DNA from: Thermodesulfovibrionia bacterium
GTDB taxonomy: Bacteria; Nitrospirota; Thermodesulfovibrionia; UBA6902
Direction of reading: 5' to 3'
Assembly (NCBI GenBank): GCA_947259735.1
Contig: CAMYNN010000006.1
Location: forward strand, 4,998-68,997
Length of the DNA: 64,000 nt
Made by a program: the position numbers and the translations under genes. Below, in pieces: positions 3,728 through 10,602 of the stretch; positions within the stretch are counted from its first letter, which is position 1; each line of letters opens with the position of its first letter. The notes under the pieces were generated by a model. That model was not told where the DNA came from. It ran no database searches and saw nothing but the letters and a program-made list of their open reading frames with translations.

Positions 3728-4366
3728 TTAAGACAATCCCAGTATTTTCTTTGCTTCAATCACGGCCGAGCCCGCATCAGGGGCATAGGAGTCGGCCCCG
3801 ATCTGTTCGGCAAAACCGGCGCTAACAGGGGCACCACCTATCATTACCTTTACTTTATCTCGCAGGCCGGCATTCTGTAATGCATCAATGGTCTCTTTCA
3901 TACCGGGCATTGTTGTTGAAAGCAGCGCCGACAGTGCCAGTATCTCCGCACCGGTCTCTTTGACTTTTTCAACAAATGCATCAGCAGGAATATCCACCCC
4001 AAGGTCGATTATGGTAAATCCGGCCCCTTCCATCATCATGGACACAAGGTTCTTACCAATATCGTGAAGGTCGCCCTTCACCGTTCCGATAACAACCTTG
4101 CCCTTAAAATTGATATCCTGGTCCTGCAAATGCGGTTTCATAAGGACCATGCACTCCTGCATGGCCTTTGCAGAGCGCAGCATCTGCGGAACAAACATCT
4201 TGCCTGACGCAAACCTGGCGCCGACCTCGTCCATGGGTGCTATGAGGCCCTTGTCAAGAATATCCTGAACGTCAATTTCTGCATCCAGTGCCTTCCTTGT
4301 CTCCTCAACGGCCTTGCTAATGTCAGACTTGATTATGGCCTCATTCAATGCTTCGAAGTTACTCAT
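3728..4366 (-). CDS. Corrinoid (cobalamin-binding) methyl-carrier protein, MtgC/MttC-like
   Basis: 212 aa with a helical cap plus a Rossmann B12-binding domain. It has the DxHxxG motif (GDLHDIGKN), SALLSTT and a GGAP motif. Confidence 0.9.
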   Translation of the reverse strand: MSNFEALNEAIIKSDISKAVEETRKALDAEIDVQDILDKGLIAPMDEVGARFASGKMFVPQMLRSAKAMQECMVLMKPHLQDQDINFKGKVVIGTVKGDLHDIGKNLVSMMMEGAGFTIIDLGVDIPADAFVEKVKETGAEILALSALLSTTMPGMKETIDALQNAGLRDKVKVMIGGAPVSAGFAEQIGADSYAPDAGSAVIEAKKILGLS

Positions 4367-4417
4367 CTTTTACCCCCTTTGATTCAACGGGTTAATAATT
4401 AATAGTTCGTAAAATAG

Positions 4418-5218
4418 TTATTGGTCAGCGAATATCCCATTCTGATAAGCATCAATATACTTTTCGCAGTACTCATCCCGTCCCAGGAGCATCTCAACGG
4501 ATATGATCGTTGACATGAGTTTCCTGTCAGTCGGGTCTAATATCGCTGCAGACAGACCATTGGCCATTGCAAGAGCGAGAAAATTCCGGTTAATAAGGCT
4601 CCTGTGGGGAAGACCGAAAGATACATTCGATAGTCCGCAGATAGTATTGACTCCCGGGAACCCCTGCATAATTTTATTTATGGCTCCGAGGATTGCAGGC
4701 CCCATGCGGATATCGACAGACACCGGCTGCACCAGCGGATCTACATAAATCTTTTCAACGGGGACTCCTTTGTCGGTTAGTTTATTTATGAGTTCTGAAG
4801 CTGCTTCTACCCGGTCTTCCACACTGACCGGCATTGCTGTCTGTGTCATGCACAGGGCAACCACATGGCATGGATGAGATGTTATGACCGGAAGGAGTGC
4901 CTCATAGCGATCTCTTTCAAGTGAGATTGAATTTATCATCGGCTCACCTTTGTGGAGTTTGATTGCTTCGGACAGGGCTGCGGGGTCGGGGCTGTCCAGG
5001 CAGAGCGGCAGATCAATTTGGGACTGCACTGTTTCTACGAGCCAGCAAAGACATTCTGTTTCCTTTTCCACAAAGGTTCCTGCATTGACATCAATAAAGC
5101 TTGCTCCTGCGTCAGCCTGGTCCTTAGCTACATGAACAATAAAATCAACATCCCTGATTTCTACAGCTTCAGCTATCTTTTTGCGGCTTGTATTGATCTT
5201 TTCGCCAACGATGATCAT
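4418..5218 (-). CDS. Pterin-binding methyltransferase (methyl-corrinoid:tetrahydrofolate methyltransferase, MtgA/AcsE-like)
   Basis: 266 aa. MIIVGEKINTSRKKI..ASFIDVNAG..MINSIS..GLSNVSFGLP is typical of the dihydropteroate-synthase-like methyl-THF corrinoid methyltransferases. Confidence 0.8.
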   Translation of the reverse strand: MIIVGEKINTSRKKIAEAVEIRDVDFIVHVAKDQADAGASFIDVNAGTFVEKETECLCWLVETVQSQIDLPLCLDSPDPAALSEAIKLHKGEPMINSISLERDRYEALLPVITSHPCHVVALCMTQTAMPVSVEDRVEAASELINKLTDKGVPVEKIYVDPLVQPVSVDIRMGPAILGAINKIMQGFPGVNTICGLSNVSFGLPHRSLINRNFLALAMANGLSAAILDPTDRKLMSTIISVEMLLGRDEYCEKYIDAYQNGIFADQ

Positions 5219-5589: not shown

Positions 5590-5760
5590 CGTTTATTCCG
5601 CTTAAAAGTAGAGCCTGTTTATGCTGAGAGCTACAGGACTGTTGACGAGGCCAGTGCAAGCATTTTTGAATACATTGAGTTATTCTACAACCAGGTTCGC
5701 AGGCATTCAGCAATTGGTTATCTCAGCCCCAACGATTATGAACAACAATTTATACATTCA
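5590..5760 (+). pseudogene. IS3-family transposase remnant (C-terminal about 55 aa of the integrase core only)
   Basis: One frame reads RLFRLKVEPVYAESYRTVDEASASIFEYIELFYNQVRRHSAIGYLSPNDYEQQF, matching the conserved C-terminus of IS3 OrfB transposases. An in-frame stop lies immediately upstream (5587-5589). There is no N-terminal part and no inverted repeats were found. Confidence 0.6.
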
Positions 5761-5819: not shown

Positions 5820-6218
5820 ATGACTAGATATATTCATTTTTACAGTGAGCGCTTCAAACCAGACCCCGGCGAAGACGATGAAGTTAATCCCGGGATATAT
5901 GGAAAAAAGCTCGCTGCATGGTTAATAGACAACTTACCGAAGAATGGAATAAAAACAAATAGAATGTATCCTGAAGATTGGGGATGGGAGATTGATATTT
6001 CGAAGGAAAGCATTAAAGGATACGTTGGTGTGAGAAATATTGATGGAACAGAAAATGAGTGGGTAGTGTTCATTGATATAAGAAACAAGATTATAAAAAA
6101 ACTACTTGGAAAATCACAGAATGAAGGAAAAGAAATAGAGGCTGTATTGAAAGGATTAGAGAAAATCCTTAGAGGTGAGGCCAGCATAAGAAATATAAAT
6201 ATGGACTATAACCTATGA
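5820..6218 (+). CDS. Hypothetical protein (132 aa)
   Basis: ORF in an AT-rich islet. Its start overlaps the end of the transposase-remnant frame. No family recognised. Confidence 0.45.
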   Translation: MTRYIHFYSERFKPDPGEDDEVNPGIYGKKLAAWLIDNLPKNGIKTNRMYPEDWGWEIDISKESIKGYVGVRNIDGTENEWVVFIDIRNKIIKKLLGKSQNEGKEIEAVLKGLEKILRGEASIRNINMDYNL

Positions 6219-6457: not shown

Positions 6458-6466
6458 TGGTATAAT
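6458..6466 (+). promoter_or_regulatory. Extended -10 promoter candidate (TGGTATAAT)
   Basis: tggtataat lies about 120 nt upstream of the rho-like ATG. Confidence 0.4.
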
Positions 6467-6588
6467 CAGAGTGGTTAATTAAAGTCCCAGATATATCGGT
6501 ATTTAAAGATCCGGGAGTTTGAATAGAAATAATATTCTAAAATCTCCAGAGAAGACCTTCTATTAAAATCAAAAAATAAGGAGTATAT

Positions 6589-7551
6589 ATGAGTTCTTTT
6601 GGTCGGAATTCGCGGCGTGGGCATTCACGACCGCAGCAGCGTTCGCATGCGCCTGCGCGCAGAGTTGCTTCAGCGGATGAGAAAAAGTTTCTTGCCGGTA
6701 CGGCAATAAATCCACATCCGCGTATTATTCTTGAGAAGGGCAGTGATGATTTGTCTGTCCGTGCGCTTGATCTTATTTGTCCAATAGGGATGGGTCAGCG
6801 TGCTCTTGTAGTATCATCGCCTGGGTTGGGGAAAACAACTTTTTTAAAGAATATCTGTAATGCAGTTACAGACGGGTATCCTGACATGAAGGTATATTGC
6901 GTACTCGTTGATGAGCGACCTGAAGAGGTCACTGATTTTACGCGTAGTGTGCGTGCCAAAGTGCATTCTTCATCTATGGATCATAGTCATGAAAATCATA
7001 TAAAACTTGTCGATACGGTCATTGCAGAGGCTTTTAAGGAAGCTGCCGCAGGGCATAATGTGATGATACTGCTTGATTCACTTACGCGTCTGGCGCGGGT
7101 ACATAACGCACAGCACCGGGGTCGGGGGCGTACGATGTCTGGAGGAGTGGGTGCCGGTGCACTTGAAGTGCCTCGTCGCATTTTTGGTACAGCCCGCAAT
7201 GTAGAGGGGATGGGCTCTATAACTATCCTTGCGACTATCCTGGTCGATACGGGCAGTGCTATGGATGATGTTATATTTGAGGAGTTTAAAGGCACAGGGA
7301 ATATGGAACTGGTGCTCTCAAAAAAACTGGCGGAGACAAGGGTATTCCCGGCAATCGATGTGGAAAAAAGCGGTACCCGGCGTGCTGAGCTTTTGTTTGA
7401 GCCGGAAGAGTACAGACGTCTTCAATTATTGTACCGGGGCATGGCAACGATGAATAATGTGACTGCTATGGAAAAGCTGATAGACATGCTTCAGAAATAT
7501 CCGAGTAATAGCGATCTTTTAGAATCATTTAAAGGTTTTAAGGTTAGTTAG
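6589..7551 (+). CDS. Rho-family hexameric ATPase lacking the N-terminal RNA-binding domain
   Basis: 320 aa with SD AAGGAG 5 nt upstream and an in-frame stop 12 nt upstream. It aligns by eye to the C-terminal two thirds of E. coli Rho (PIGMGQRALVVSSPGLGKT, VLVDERPEEV, DSLTRLARVHN, MSGGV, FEEFKGTGNMELVLSKK, VFPAIDVEKSGTR). The first about 45 aa are Arg/Ser-rich and unrelated to the Rho N-terminal domain. Confidence 0.85.
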   Translation: MSSFGRNSRRGHSRPQQRSHAPARRVASADEKKFLAGTAINPHPRIILEKGSDDLSVRALDLICPIGMGQRALVVSSPGLGKTTFLKNICNAVTDGYPDMKVYCVLVDERPEEVTDFTRSVRAKVHSSSMDHSHENHIKLVDTVIAEAFKEAAAGHNVMILLDSLTRLARVHNAQHRGRGRTMSGGVGAGALEVPRRIFGTARNVEGMGSITILATILVDTGSAMDDVIFEEFKGTGNMELVLSKKLAETRVFPAIDVEKSGTRRAELLFEPEEYRRLQLLYRGMATMNNVTAMEKLIDMLQKYPSNSDLLESFKGFKVS

Positions 7552-8088
7552 GGTTAACTTGAATGAACAATAACTGTTCTGTGCACAGGGATGACGCCGG
7601 CGGTGACTGATATGCAATTGAATCACTTCCAGTCTAGAAATTATCTTTTAGCAGTTAAATATAATCCAGGCACTTGTCAGTGATACTTAGTCCGATATGG
7701 GCTTGGCCTTAGCAGGCGCTATTTTATCTATATTATTATTAAGCCGCTATCATGATGTTCAAATGAAACATGACCAGTCAATAAATTTCAATCAGCACTA
7801 ACGTTTGTACGAGAAAAGTATTGAATAGGGGAAAGATGAAGTAAAAAAGTATTGCTTTTTGCTCCAAAGGGATTTGAAGACTTAAAGCTTGCTAAATTCG
7901 CTGACTGGAAAAGACGATGATACTTTCCTCTCTTCAGAGAATTACCTCTATTCTTAATATGGAATCTATTGACGCAGGCCCGGTTGAAACCCTGTTGAAA
8001 CAATTACCGAACTTCAACCGGTGGATAATAAGGATGCAGGATCAGGTCAGGGAAGAGAAGTAGGGGGATGACCCAGCGGACTTCTTTG

Positions 8089-9705
8089 CTAAGCGCCCAC
8101 TATGTTTGCTTTCTTTTTCAGCAGTGCCGCCCGTTCACGGCGGAGTTGTTTTTTATTGACAGACTTAGTCCGGGACCTGGGTTTATTTACACGCGGCGTG
8201 TCGGACTCATTTTCACTTCTCCAGCCAACACGGTCGAGGAAGTCCTGATAGGTTCCTTCAAATAAAGTTACTTTTCCGTCATCAAAGACTATCAGACGCG
8301 TGGCCAGCGCGTGAAGCATCATTTCACTGTGAGTTACGATAATTACTGAGCCGTTGAAAGCATCTATGGCCTCAACCAGGGAATCATTGGATTCCATGTC
8401 AAGATGGTTTGTCGGCTCATCGAGCATGAGCATGTTGGAGGGGCTGACAAGCAGCTTGCCGAGCAGCACACGGCTCTTTTCCCCTCCGGAAAGCACACTG
8501 ATTTTTTTTAATGCATTATCCCCGGGAAACATCATAGTTCCGCATATTTTGCGGGTCTCACCGCGGCTGCCTTCAGGATGCACATCCATAATCTCTTCCT
8601 CAATGGTCTTGTGCAGGCTGAGGCGGTTTATGTTTGTCTGGCCAAAATAGGCCATCCGGAGCTGATTGTGATGATTGACGGTGCCGGTATTCTTTTTCAG
8701 TTCGTGTGCAAGCAGATTCAGCAGTGTCGTCTTTCCCTTGCCGTTTTTTCCGATAATGGCTATACGGTCCTTCTTTCCGACTGAAAAGGTCAATCCATCA
8801 ATCAAGGGAGGACTATCATTATCAAAAGAAAAAGACAGGTCATGAACTTCCATGAGCTGCTTCCCTGTAAAAGGCGCTGATTTGAACGCGAAATCAAGGT
8901 TCCTTATCTCTGTTAATTTTTCAAGGCGATCTTTTTTCTGCAAAGCCTTTACCCTCGACTGGACGGCTTTTGCCTTGGTTGCCTTTGCCCTGAACCTGTT
9001 TATAAATTCCTCTGTCTCTTTACGCTTTTTATCGTCGTTAACCCTGGTTTTTTCATGTATTTCTTCCTCCAGCAGCAATTGTTGATATACCTTCTCCGTC
9101 GGGCCGGCTTCTTTCCGCATATTACACCGGTGTATGGCCATAGTATGTGTTGTCACACTGTCCATAAAATCACGGTCGTGGGTGATAATGATGAGTTCTT
9201 TCTTCCAGCTGCATAAAAACTGAGTAAGCCAGCGGAGAGAGAGAATATCAAGATAGTTGGTGGGCTCATCAAGCAGGAGAAGATTAGGGTCGGAAACAAG
9301 CACCTTTGCAAGATTTAACCGGACCTGATATCCTCCTGATAAATCCAATGGATCGAGACTGAATTCTTCCATGGCAAACCCGAGCCCCATAAGGATAATT
9401 TCCGCTTTATATGTCTCATCAATGCCGTCCTCTGCGTCCTGTAGACTCAGGCATGCCTCCTTCAACACAGTGTTCCGGGAAAAGCTGATATGCTGTGACA
9501 AATGACCTATCTTATAGCCCTTTGGAATGCTGATGGCTCCTGAATCAGGGTGGTCCTGCCCCAGTATCATTTTAAAGAGAGTTGTTTTGCCGTGCCCGTT
9601 TCTGCCCACAAGGCCGACACGTTCCCCCGGATTAAGGATAAATCCTGCCTTCTCAAAAATGACCTGCCGGCCATAACATTTATCTAGGTTGTTTCCCTGA
9701 ATCAT
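8089..9705 (-). CDS. ABC-F family ATPase (two ABC domains, no transmembrane domain)
   Basis: 538 aa with two Walker A motifs (GRNGHGKTT, GKNGKGKTT), two LSGG signatures and a charged linker. Confidence 0.9.
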   Translation of the reverse strand: MIQGNNLDKCYGRQVIFEKAGFILNPGERVGLVGRNGHGKTTLFKMILGQDHPDSGAISIPKGYKIGHLSQHISFSRNTVLKEACLSLQDAEDGIDETYKAEIILMGLGFAMEEFSLDPLDLSGGYQVRLNLAKVLVSDPNLLLLDEPTNYLDILSLRWLTQFLCSWKKELIIITHDRDFMDSVTTHTMAIHRCNMRKEAGPTEKVYQQLLLEEEIHEKTRVNDDKKRKETEEFINRFRAKATKAKAVQSRVKALQKKDRLEKLTEIRNLDFAFKSAPFTGKQLMEVHDLSFSFDNDSPPLIDGLTFSVGKKDRIAIIGKNGKGKTTLLNLLAHELKKNTGTVNHHNQLRMAYFGQTNINRLSLHKTIEEEIMDVHPEGSRGETRKICGTMMFPGDNALKKISVLSGGEKSRVLLGKLLVSPSNMLMLDEPTNHLDMESNDSLVEAIDAFNGSVIIVTHSEMMLHALATRLIVFDDGKVTLFEGTYQDFLDRVGWRSENESDTPRVNKPRSRTKSVNKKQLRRERAALLKKKANIVGA

Positions 9706-10092: not shown

Positions 10093-10602
10093 TCATATGA
10101 AGGTACTCACTTTTAGCGACTCCCGCCCCTCATCTTTTCTCAACGCAGCCCTTGAAGCCCTATCCACAAGCGTAAAAAGCCTGTCCATATCATCTTTCTG
10201 ATTCAATCCCTGATGTCCACGTACTTTGATGAATTTACAATTCAACTGATCGGTCACTCTGTAAAATTCCTGATACAGCTTATAATTATTAATGCGCCTG
10301 TTTTTCTTTGAGCGATAATTATTTTGCTCGAGCTGCACGCGTCTTCCCTGTAACCCCATGATATTTTGAGAATCCGTATACAAAATCACTCTCCTCCCTA
10401 TTGCCTGTATATCCTGGAACGCCCATAATAAAGTCTGTAATTCCAGTTTCGTTGAAGACGTATGCTCAAATCGCTTCACTTTCACGCGGGCCCTTAACGA
10501 ATCCAGTGAAAGTTTACCTTCAGTCACTGCGAGGTAAGCCCCGTATCCGATATTAGAATGAGCATTTACACTTCCATCTGTGAGCAGCACTATTTCATTC
10601 AT
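10093..10602 (-). CDS. RNase H type-1 family protein
   Basis: 169 aa with a DEDD(H)-like pattern: LLTDGS, TKLELQ, LYTDSQ, VRGHQG, LVDRAS. Confidence 0.75.
   Translation of the reverse strand: MNEIVLLTDGSVNAHSNIGYGAYLAVTEGKLSLDSLRARVKVKRFEHTSSTKLELQTLLWAFQDIQAIGRRVILYTDSQNIMGLQGRRVQLEQNNYRSKKNRRINNYKLYQEFYRVTDQLNCKFIKVRGHQGLNQKDDMDRLFTLVDRASRAALRKDEGRESLKVSTFI

Follow-up and report, generated by a model that had tools for sequence, protein, structure and literature searches.

Rho is the textbook ring helicase, and its loading on RNA is attributed to a primary binding site formed by an oligonucleotide/oligosaccharide-binding (OB) fold. The gene considered here, at positions 6589-7551 of a 64,000-nucleotide stretch (the window) of contig CAMYNN010000006.1 from a Thermodesulfovibrionia bacterium, encodes a Rho-type ATPase, hereafter the short Rho, in which that fold is missing. 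The original prediction, made from the sequence alone, regarded the protein as a specialised Rho paralog, recruited by a partner or by its basic tail, or else belonging to a mobile or defence module. It proposed as checks a domain scan, a phylogeny of the ATPase domain and a survey of the neighbourhoods of homologs, and it named a frameshifted N-terminal domain found upstream by tblastn as an outcome that would speak against it.

Departures from the canonical plan have been described. The survey by Moreira et al. (2024) distinguishes 'Group B' or 'Type 4' Rho proteins, which are without the N-terminal helix bundle and keep the RNA-binding domain, and gives the name 'Rho-like' to proteins with just a single Rho domain out of three, the latter being left outside the main-text analysis (PMC11347177). 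In Mycobacterium tuberculosis Rho, an Arg/Gly-rich intrinsically disordered insertion binds RNA and governs Rut-site use (PMC13650167). Our literature searches found no paper characterising an OB-less Rho. As detailed below, the short Rho is a real, conserved and specialised Rho-family gene, maintained by purifying selection, and not a broken copy.

Gene, basic tail and motor domain

The open reading frame (ORF) at 6589-7551 (+) comprises 320 codons and a stop, with the ATG at 6589 and the stop codon at 7549-7551; its assignment as the coding sequence of a tail-only Rho-like ATPase draws on the ORF list, matches to Rho profiles and PDB entries, the predicted fold and an identical public protein (P0001). 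A Shine-Dalgarno sequence, AAGGAG (6578..6583, +), stands 5 nt before the ATG, and the segment TAAGGAGTAT is kept in three relatives (L001, L002 and L003). Upstream extension is blocked by an in-frame TAA at 6577-6579, 12 nt before the ATG. Re-reading the sequence thus gave the same ribosome-binding site, spacer and unextendable frame as the original prediction.

The only Pfam domain in the 320-aa protein is the generic nucleotide-binding domain PF00006 (ATP-synt_ab), over residues 57-261; at E≤1 the scan returned neither Rho_N (PF07498) nor Rho_RNA_bind (PF07497), which bears out the predicted absence of both. The NCBIfam Rho model PRK09376 (NF006886) scores 360 bits against a cutoff of 315, with residues 29-313 corresponding to profile positions 128-412 of 413, while TIGR00767 gives 342.6 bits against a cutoff of 509.45. 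By sequence, the closest PDB entries are Rho without exception (E = 9e-82), and they pair query residues from ~34-38 onward with E. coli residues from ~137-140 onward. Homology to Rho therefore starts at the connector only (E. coli ~127-417). Six-frame tblastn with E. coli Rho matched the window at 6700-7533 only (E. coli 137-417), with the expected 47% match over residues 137-417. The same search revealed no second rho in the 64-kb window, and the N-terminal 135 residues of E. coli Rho yielded nothing better than E~1 in any of its six frames. The window thus encodes no N-terminal domain, either out of frame or as a gene of its own. Profile, PDB and tblastn results thus agree with the original description of 320 residues that are Rho-like only beyond the N-terminal domain, the profile placing the start at E. 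coli ~127.

Where canonical Rho has its Rho_N and OB domains, the short Rho has a basic disordered tail without any domain match (residues 1-28, MSSFGRNSRRGHSRPQQRSHAPARRVAS; 6589..6672, +). It is followed by a connector equivalent to E. coli Rho ~127-152 (ADEKKFLAGTAINPHPRIILEKGSDD; 6673..6750, +), as judged from the profile and family alignments, with a modelled helix at residues 29-36. Three connector residues, F34, T38 and E49, are invariant in the family alignment (A1). The original prediction had counted about 45 non-Rho residues; the Arg-rich, non-Rho character of the tract stands, but its length must be reduced to ~28, because residues 29-45 (ADEKKFLAGTAINPHPR) align to the connector and the modelled helix begins at 29. 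Across the family the tail has a median of 27 residues and a net charge of +7, with 22% Arg and ~48% Ser/Gly/Gln/Asn/Pro/Thr, and its consensus reads MsSf..nsRRg.SRpqqrS..pARRvv. In the AlphaFold2 (AF2) model, residues 1-22 have a predicted local distance difference test (pLDDT) score below 50. Since the basic tail is itself conserved, recruitment by the tail, already put forward in the original prediction, remains the leading idea.

The motor behind the tail is complete. The AF2 prediction, which is of the monomer only and was made from a 49-sequence alignment, has a pLDDT of 88.5 and a predicted template modelling (pTM) score of 0.85. Its top Foldseek matches in the PDB are only Rho chains (TMq 0.85, root-mean-square deviation (rmsd) 1.5 Å over 285 columns). 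The catalytic set is invariant in 111 family members: in E. coli numbering, K184, T185, D210, E211, R212, D265, S266, R269, G337 and R366. These include K82 and T83 of the Walker A motif or P-loop (SSPGLGKT, residues 76-83; 6814..6837, +), the catalytic Glu and Arg valve in D108-E109-R110 (E. coli D210-E211-R212; 6910..6918, +), D163 (= D265) and S164 (= S266) of the Walker B motif (VMILLDS, residues 158-164; 7060..7080, +), and the Arg finger R264 (E. coli R366; 7378..7380, +). The bicyclomycin-pocket residues S266 and G337 are among those conserved.

Two lysines of canonical Rho are nevertheless replaced. The position of P-loop K181 (G79 here) is always Gly in the 111 members, whereas it is K or R in 144 of 145 other Rho representatives. 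In the R-loop equivalent (DTGSA, residues 220-224; 7246..7260, +), whose T, G and S are invariant, A224 takes the position of E. coli K326; the 111 members have A (71), R (18), N (16) or C (3) there, against K/R in 142 of the 145 other representatives. The claim that the motifs are all intact thus held for Walker A and B, the catalytic Glu, the Arg valve and the Arg finger, but not for P-loop K181 (Gly) and R-loop K326 (Ala). The Q-loop equivalent (residues 176-188, HRGRGRTMSGGVG; 7114..7152, +) is enriched in Arg and His: the family reads HRGRGRTMSGG, with a median of 3 R/K and 2 His, as compared with 2 R/K in the other Rho representatives. The conserved changes K283→R and T286→S in this loop are common conservative variants. 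Its pLDDT of 67-69 is consistent with a flexible loop. Loss of the R-loop lysine together with K181 suggests an altered coupling of RNA binding to ATP hydrolysis, and the activity and specificity of the short Rho probably differ from those of canonical Rho.

Distribution, selection and relation to other Rho proteins

A search of 5.8 billion protein clusters gave 120 best matches of 284-375 aa, mostly of exactly 320 aa and 73-100% identical to the short Rho. Those with a name are annotated 'MAG: transcription termination factor Rho' and come from metagenome-assembled genomes (MAGs) binned as Nitrospirae, Nitrospirota, Thermodesulfovibrionia or 'Nitrospiraceae'. When P0112, from the branch of the family that has diverged most, served as the query instead, the list was largely unchanged, with six clusters added, which indicates that the family is nearly exhausted at ~126 clusters with at least 68% identity. 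All of them are from Nitrospirota/Thermodesulfovibrionia-type MAGs and metagenomes, and none is from a cultured isolate. Members lie on the closed 3.17-Mb chromosome of one MAG (CP070632.1), on a contig of 4.29 Mb (ERZ21831077 contig_2) and on several contigs of 0.1-0.5 Mb, and a metagenome scan with residues 1-80 as query added ~23 loci with the same tail and connector. The short Rho is therefore a common lineage-specific form, which is one half of an outcome that the original prediction had named as speaking against it, the other half being that it is also the only rho in the genome. One relative (L005; JAAEQR010000195.1, GCA_024231215.1) has a called start giving 300 aa, which is too short: the ORF reaches 330 aa and then includes the family tail (MRSFGSNSRRG…). 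Its MAG is labelled 'PVC group bacterium'; with a rho that is 87% identical and three syntenic genes (VF530 at 79%), the label is probably wrong and the genome that of a close relative.

Selection has acted to keep the protein. Pairwise ratios of non-synonymous to synonymous substitution rates (dN/dS) against four orthologs are 0.09-0.12 when taken over the core and 0.16-0.45 when taken over the tail, and the short Rho is 87-88% identical to relatives as compared with 55-79% for syntenic neighbours. Length and architecture repeated in the ~126 clusters, purifying selection and a complete modelled fold all support the view of a specialised Rho-family protein from which the original prediction started.

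Outside the family, similarity falls off steeply. When 1.84 billion representatives were searched exhaustively with phmmer, only three short proteins came out at 57-62% identity (P0121, P0122 and P0124); the matches below them level off at 45-52% and comprise Rho proteins of all architectures, 314 to 1075 aa long. The closest non-Nitrospirota relative is P0121 (MEZ0371657.1), a 301-aa protein at 61% identity from a 'Candidatus Sericytochromatia' MAG. The Sericytochromatia are the non-photosynthetic sister group of the Cyanobacteria, which have been reported to be without any Rho. An Omnitrophota MAG (L006) encodes a relative of 334 aa that is 58-60% identical and has a basic tail too, of ~45 residues. 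In a neighbour-joining (NJ) tree of the motor domain, the window family forms with P0121, P0122 and L006 an 11-leaf clade on a distinct stem, apart from canonical Rho. The K181→Gly change is common to the window family, L006 and P0121. The best plasmid match, at 56% over residues 31-311 as against ~47-50% for a typical canonical Rho, is a gene annotated as rho on a 102-kb plasmid of Spartinivicinus ruber (H11, NZ_CP048880.1).

A canonical 415-aa Nitrospirota Rho (L079) is 48% identical to the short Rho and 65% identical to E. coli Rho, the short Rho and E. coli Rho being 47% identical. The short form thus did not arise recently from the canonical gene of the lineage. With the short clade ~48% identical to every canonical Rho, an old separate lineage would fit better than reduction in place. 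In other proteins, too, a low-complexity stretch of 25-100 aa rich in Arg leads straight into a Rho ATPase, without an OB fold: P0122, P0133, P0141, P0146, P0189 and P0211. Several of these groups are less than 50% identical to one another. Comparable tails occur in divergent groups that include Omnitrophota, Hydrogenedentes and Sericytochromatia; the P0211 type belongs to the Hydrogenedentes, and the P0141 type is a stand-alone gene on contigs of 4.4-4.9 Mb (L087-L089 are listed as well). The tail-plus-motor architecture thus recurs across divergent groups, and either one ancient origin or several could account for it.

Genomic setting

The short rho is monocistronic, with 200-430 bp of intergenic DNA upstream. 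Its flanks have a GC content of 0.32-0.39 against 0.456 for the window, whereas the gene's own GC, 0.47-0.51, equals that of the genome. A 3′ remnant of an IS3-family transposase (…VYAESYRTVDEASASIFEYIELFYNQVRRHSAIGYLSPNDYEQQFI; ~5617-5754, +) matches rve_2 at E = 9e-11 and, with in-frame stops upstream, is a dead fragment. Between this remnant and the short rho lies a 132-aa ORF (5820-6218, +) for which Pfam, NCBIfam and PADLOC gave no significant match; it also precedes the identical rho in L003 (CALZGI010000331.1) and was not found upstream in L001, L002, L004 or L005. The flanks had been described as AT-rich, largely non-coding and containing an IS3 remnant; the AT-richness and the remnant were found again, and the upstream flank proved to hold this ORF and a promoter region as well.

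A weak candidate for an extended -10 box, TGGTATAAT (6458..6466, +), is partly kept in L002 and L001 and would imply a leader of ~115 nt; the consensus promoter scan did not call it. Over the leader (6458-6588), a TGnTATAAT-like box and the block AGATCYGGGRGTTT…ATCTCCAGA are shared with the closer relatives L001 and L002. A structured leader or riboswitch was considered and rejected: Rfam gave no match there, the predicted fold is not more stable than those of shuffled sequences (z = +0.6), and conservation is confined to close relatives. Downstream, the consensus scan places a weak terminator-like hairpin with a T-run at 7701..7727 (+), ~150 nt past the stop.

On the upstream side, ordinary genes for a corrinoid (B12-binding) protein and a pterin-binding methyltransferase occupy 3728-5218 (-), and an ABC-F type ATPase (8089-9705, -) is downstream and convergent with the short rho. 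An ABC-type ATPase also occurs near the short rho of the Omnitrophota MAG, at 30-39% identity, which is likely a coincidence. In five long loci the neighbours are ordinary metabolic or regulatory genes, different each time, and in the survey of 28 short-form loci no neighbour family recurs in more than three. Neither an operon partner nor linkage to a canonical rho was found among these 28 loci, and the suggestion of a partner encoded nearby accordingly lost its ground. Some synteny remains: an RNase H gene is shared with L001 (69%), and VF530 (79%) and a DHODB-FeS/Pyr_redox_2 pair (~55%) are shared with L005. The RNase H gene lies at 10093-10602 (-) in the window and at 11320-11808 in L001, ~2.5 kb from the short rho in both. 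Linkage to RNase H could have hinted at an R-loop theme, but the gene is absent from the other 26 loci, so this is residual synteny and not functional linkage.

The setting bears on two readings of the gene that we consider very improbable. According to one, it would be a horizontally acquired motor ATPase of a mobile element or anti-phage defence system residing in an AT-rich islet, as the original prediction had allowed. The AT-rich flanks, the IS3 remnant and the uncharacterised 132-aa ORF upstream would suit this idea, as would a marginal PADLOC match to mad8, which is limited to the P-loop region (E = 2e-4, 19 bits). But the matches in phages, plasmids and IMG/VR are all below 60% identity and correspond to canonical rho or host DNA, the gene has genomic GC, and no neighbour recurs. 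Residual synteny, ordinary metabolic or housekeeping neighbours and the lack of mobile relatives indicate instead vertical chromosomal inheritance, and we no longer retain the mobile or defence module. The other reading, in which the gene is a pseudogene or an artefact derived from a normal rho by truncation, frameshift or mis-assembly, we regard as practically negligible. The IS3 remnant and the AT-rich DNA upstream could hint at a disrupted 5′ part; however, proteins of ~320 aa that share this start and this tail are present in the ~126 clusters and in at least 28 independent loci from many assemblies, the N-terminal domain has left no trace in any frame of the window, the ribosome-binding site is conserved, and dN/dS is ~0.1.

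Possible roles and comparison with known Rho types

On balance we favour, if by no great measure, a functional, vertically inherited tail-only Rho, that is, a hexameric RNA motor loading by its basic tails and accessory to a canonical Rho. Its elements would be the complete RecA-type motor and connector, preceded only by the ~28-residue disordered tail with a net charge of ~+7. If a Rho-like hexameric ring forms, six tails (~+42 in total) would project from the face where the N-terminal domains normally sit, around the channel entrance. By their charge they could bind single-stranded RNA largely irrespective of its sequence, replacing the pyrimidine-specific primary binding site, and RNA would then be passed to the central channel, there to be engaged by the Arg/His-enriched Q-loops while ATP hydrolysis drives 5′→3′ translocation. 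The Arg/Gly-rich insertion of M. tuberculosis Rho may be taken as the nearest experimental precedent for RNA binding by such a tail. The most likely function would be that of an accessory RNA/R-loop remodelling or termination factor with a different substrate range, acting beside a canonical Rho, which probably coexists with the short form.

Several points weigh against this interpretation. Hexamerisation, RNA binding and translocase or helicase activity are all inferred. The deep branches of the NJ tree are very short, and nothing is resolved past the 11-leaf clade. No canonical Rho from a genome with the short form was among the matches listed, so co-occurrence is shown for no genome. Lys326 of the R-loop contacts RNA in closed-ring structures of E. 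coli Rho, and with Ala at this position in 64% of the members and Gly for K181, the RNA-coupled ATPase of the short form could be altered or weak. In E. coli Rho, moreover, occupancy of the primary site promotes ring closure, and deletion of N-terminal residues abolishes RNA binding, the latter according to the survey (PMC11347177). A motor without this domain may thus be poorly active alone.

Two other roles have to be considered, and both turn on the presence of a canonical Rho. The short Rho might be the only Rho of its lineage and thus a housekeeping terminator without a primary RNA-binding domain, recruited by its basic tail, by binding directly to RNA polymerase or NusG, or in both ways; this we judge possible though rather unlikely. 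It would agree with a single form found lineage-wide, on two Mb-scale contigs, with conservation above that of the neighbouring genes and a dN/dS of ~0.1, with a stand-alone gene that has, like rho, its own ribosome-binding site and promoter region, with the NCBI annotation, which already reads 'transcription termination factor Rho', and with the missing canonical copy. That absence is, however, uninformative, because the L079 seed came from another, heavily sampled Nitrospirota lineage (56% GC), and the best 120 matches in its search were all at least 96% identical; none of their contigs agreed in length with a short-form contig. The matches listed from a genome-contig scan were taken up by generic Rho motifs, with no close short-form member among them, and literature searches on Thermodesulfovibrio and Rho found nothing. 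Canonical Rho is present in the Nitrospirota, where it is extremely conserved, and in the Omnitrophota, so that relatives of the short form occur in phyla that also have canonical Rho. In the survey, Nitrospirota do not figure among the phyla without functional Rho, and of 2730 complete genomes, 2446 have a Rho-type ATPase domain and 2730 minus 284 a functional Rho (PMC11347177). The two counts being equal, no surveyed species had an ATPase-only form as its sole Rho. The identity values given above (48%, 47% and 65%) likewise fit better with an old separate lineage. That a whole Nitrospirota branch, perhaps with some Omnitrophota and Sericytochromatia, would terminate transcription without a folded RNA-binding domain, loading being ensured by the tail and/or by polymerase or NusG, seems doubtful to us.

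Alternatively, the short Rho might be a regulatory subunit, entering mixed hexamers with canonical Rho or capping its rings, which would leave fewer primary sites per ring and tune or dampen termination. We think this improbable. The kept motor and connector, which superpose on Rho at 1.5 Å, the altered R-loop and P-loop residues, suited to a modulatory and partly crippled subunit, and the existence of canonical Rho in the phylum would all be compatible with such a role. Yet an identity of ~48% leaves the ring interfaces ample room to diverge, a pure inhibitor would need neither all its catalytic residues invariant nor a conserved basic tail under purifying selection, and the 28 loci show no genomic linkage to a canonical rho.

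Whichever role applies, a conserved family made of a motor and a basic tail constitutes a natural experiment on the need for the N-terminal domain, and it bears on whether a disordered cationic tail can act as a loading device. If active alone, the short Rho would be a minimal Rho-type RNA translocase; if active beside canonical Rho, it would provide a second, differently targeted RNA/R-loop remodelling activity or a Rho regulator; and if it were the sole Rho, it would be a natural 'minimal Rho', showing that termination can do without the primary binding site. Several uncultivated phyla have proteins of this architecture. There is also a practical side, since the generic label 'transcription termination factor Rho' can wrongly imply canonical Rho-dependent termination in a genome. 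The family is already in the databases under this name and is not described as a family in the literature found.

How the short Rho relates to the known types can now be stated more precisely. With canonical Rho (E. coli type; NF006886/TIGR00767; 'Type 1') it shares the connector and the RecA-type motor, at 46-48% identity and 1.5 Å, but it has neither the helix bundle nor the OB fold of the primary RNA-binding site, and carries the 28-aa basic tail in their place; K181 is Gly and K326 mostly Ala, and it belongs to a separate clade. The canonical Rho proteins of the Nitrospirota carry Rho_N, whereas the short Rho does not. The more distant FliI/type III secretion system (T3SS) ATPases and F1 beta have the RecA-type PF00006 fold in common with it, in systems that form hexameric rings. 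Assignment to this FliI/T3SS/F1 type was rejected, the best score being 98.6 bits against a cutoff of 604 (family cutoffs 380-750), and the Rho-type Q-/R-loop framework and C-terminal helices being present.

Closer in outline are the Group B or Type 4 proteins and NF041509 ('Rho, short form (paralog_Rho2)'), which, like the short Rho, have no helix bundle, keep the catalytic residues and are below canonical size. These proteins are often second copies in their genomes. The Rho2-type proteins keep the OB fold, however: PF07497 is present in P0155 and P0197, whose alignments to the profile begin at position 1 or 22. Membership of NF041509 could be discarded for the short Rho, which has no OB fold and reaches 296.9 bits against a cutoff of 628, over positions 76-358 of 360 only. 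It does fit the 'Rho-like' definition, the ATPase domain alone being detected by Pfam and NCBIfam; but that bin is a catch-all, while the short Rho family is coherent, its members sharing the conserved basic tail and the motor substitutions that mark the clade. The Rho proteins of M. tuberculosis and Bacteroides ('Type 2') likewise have a positively charged disordered segment N-terminal of the motor. In these the disordered insertion (~160 aa) adds to an intact OB fold, whereas in the short Rho the ~28-aa tail is the only element before the connector. Judged by its domain content, the short Rho is thereby more reduced than any functional Rho type described.

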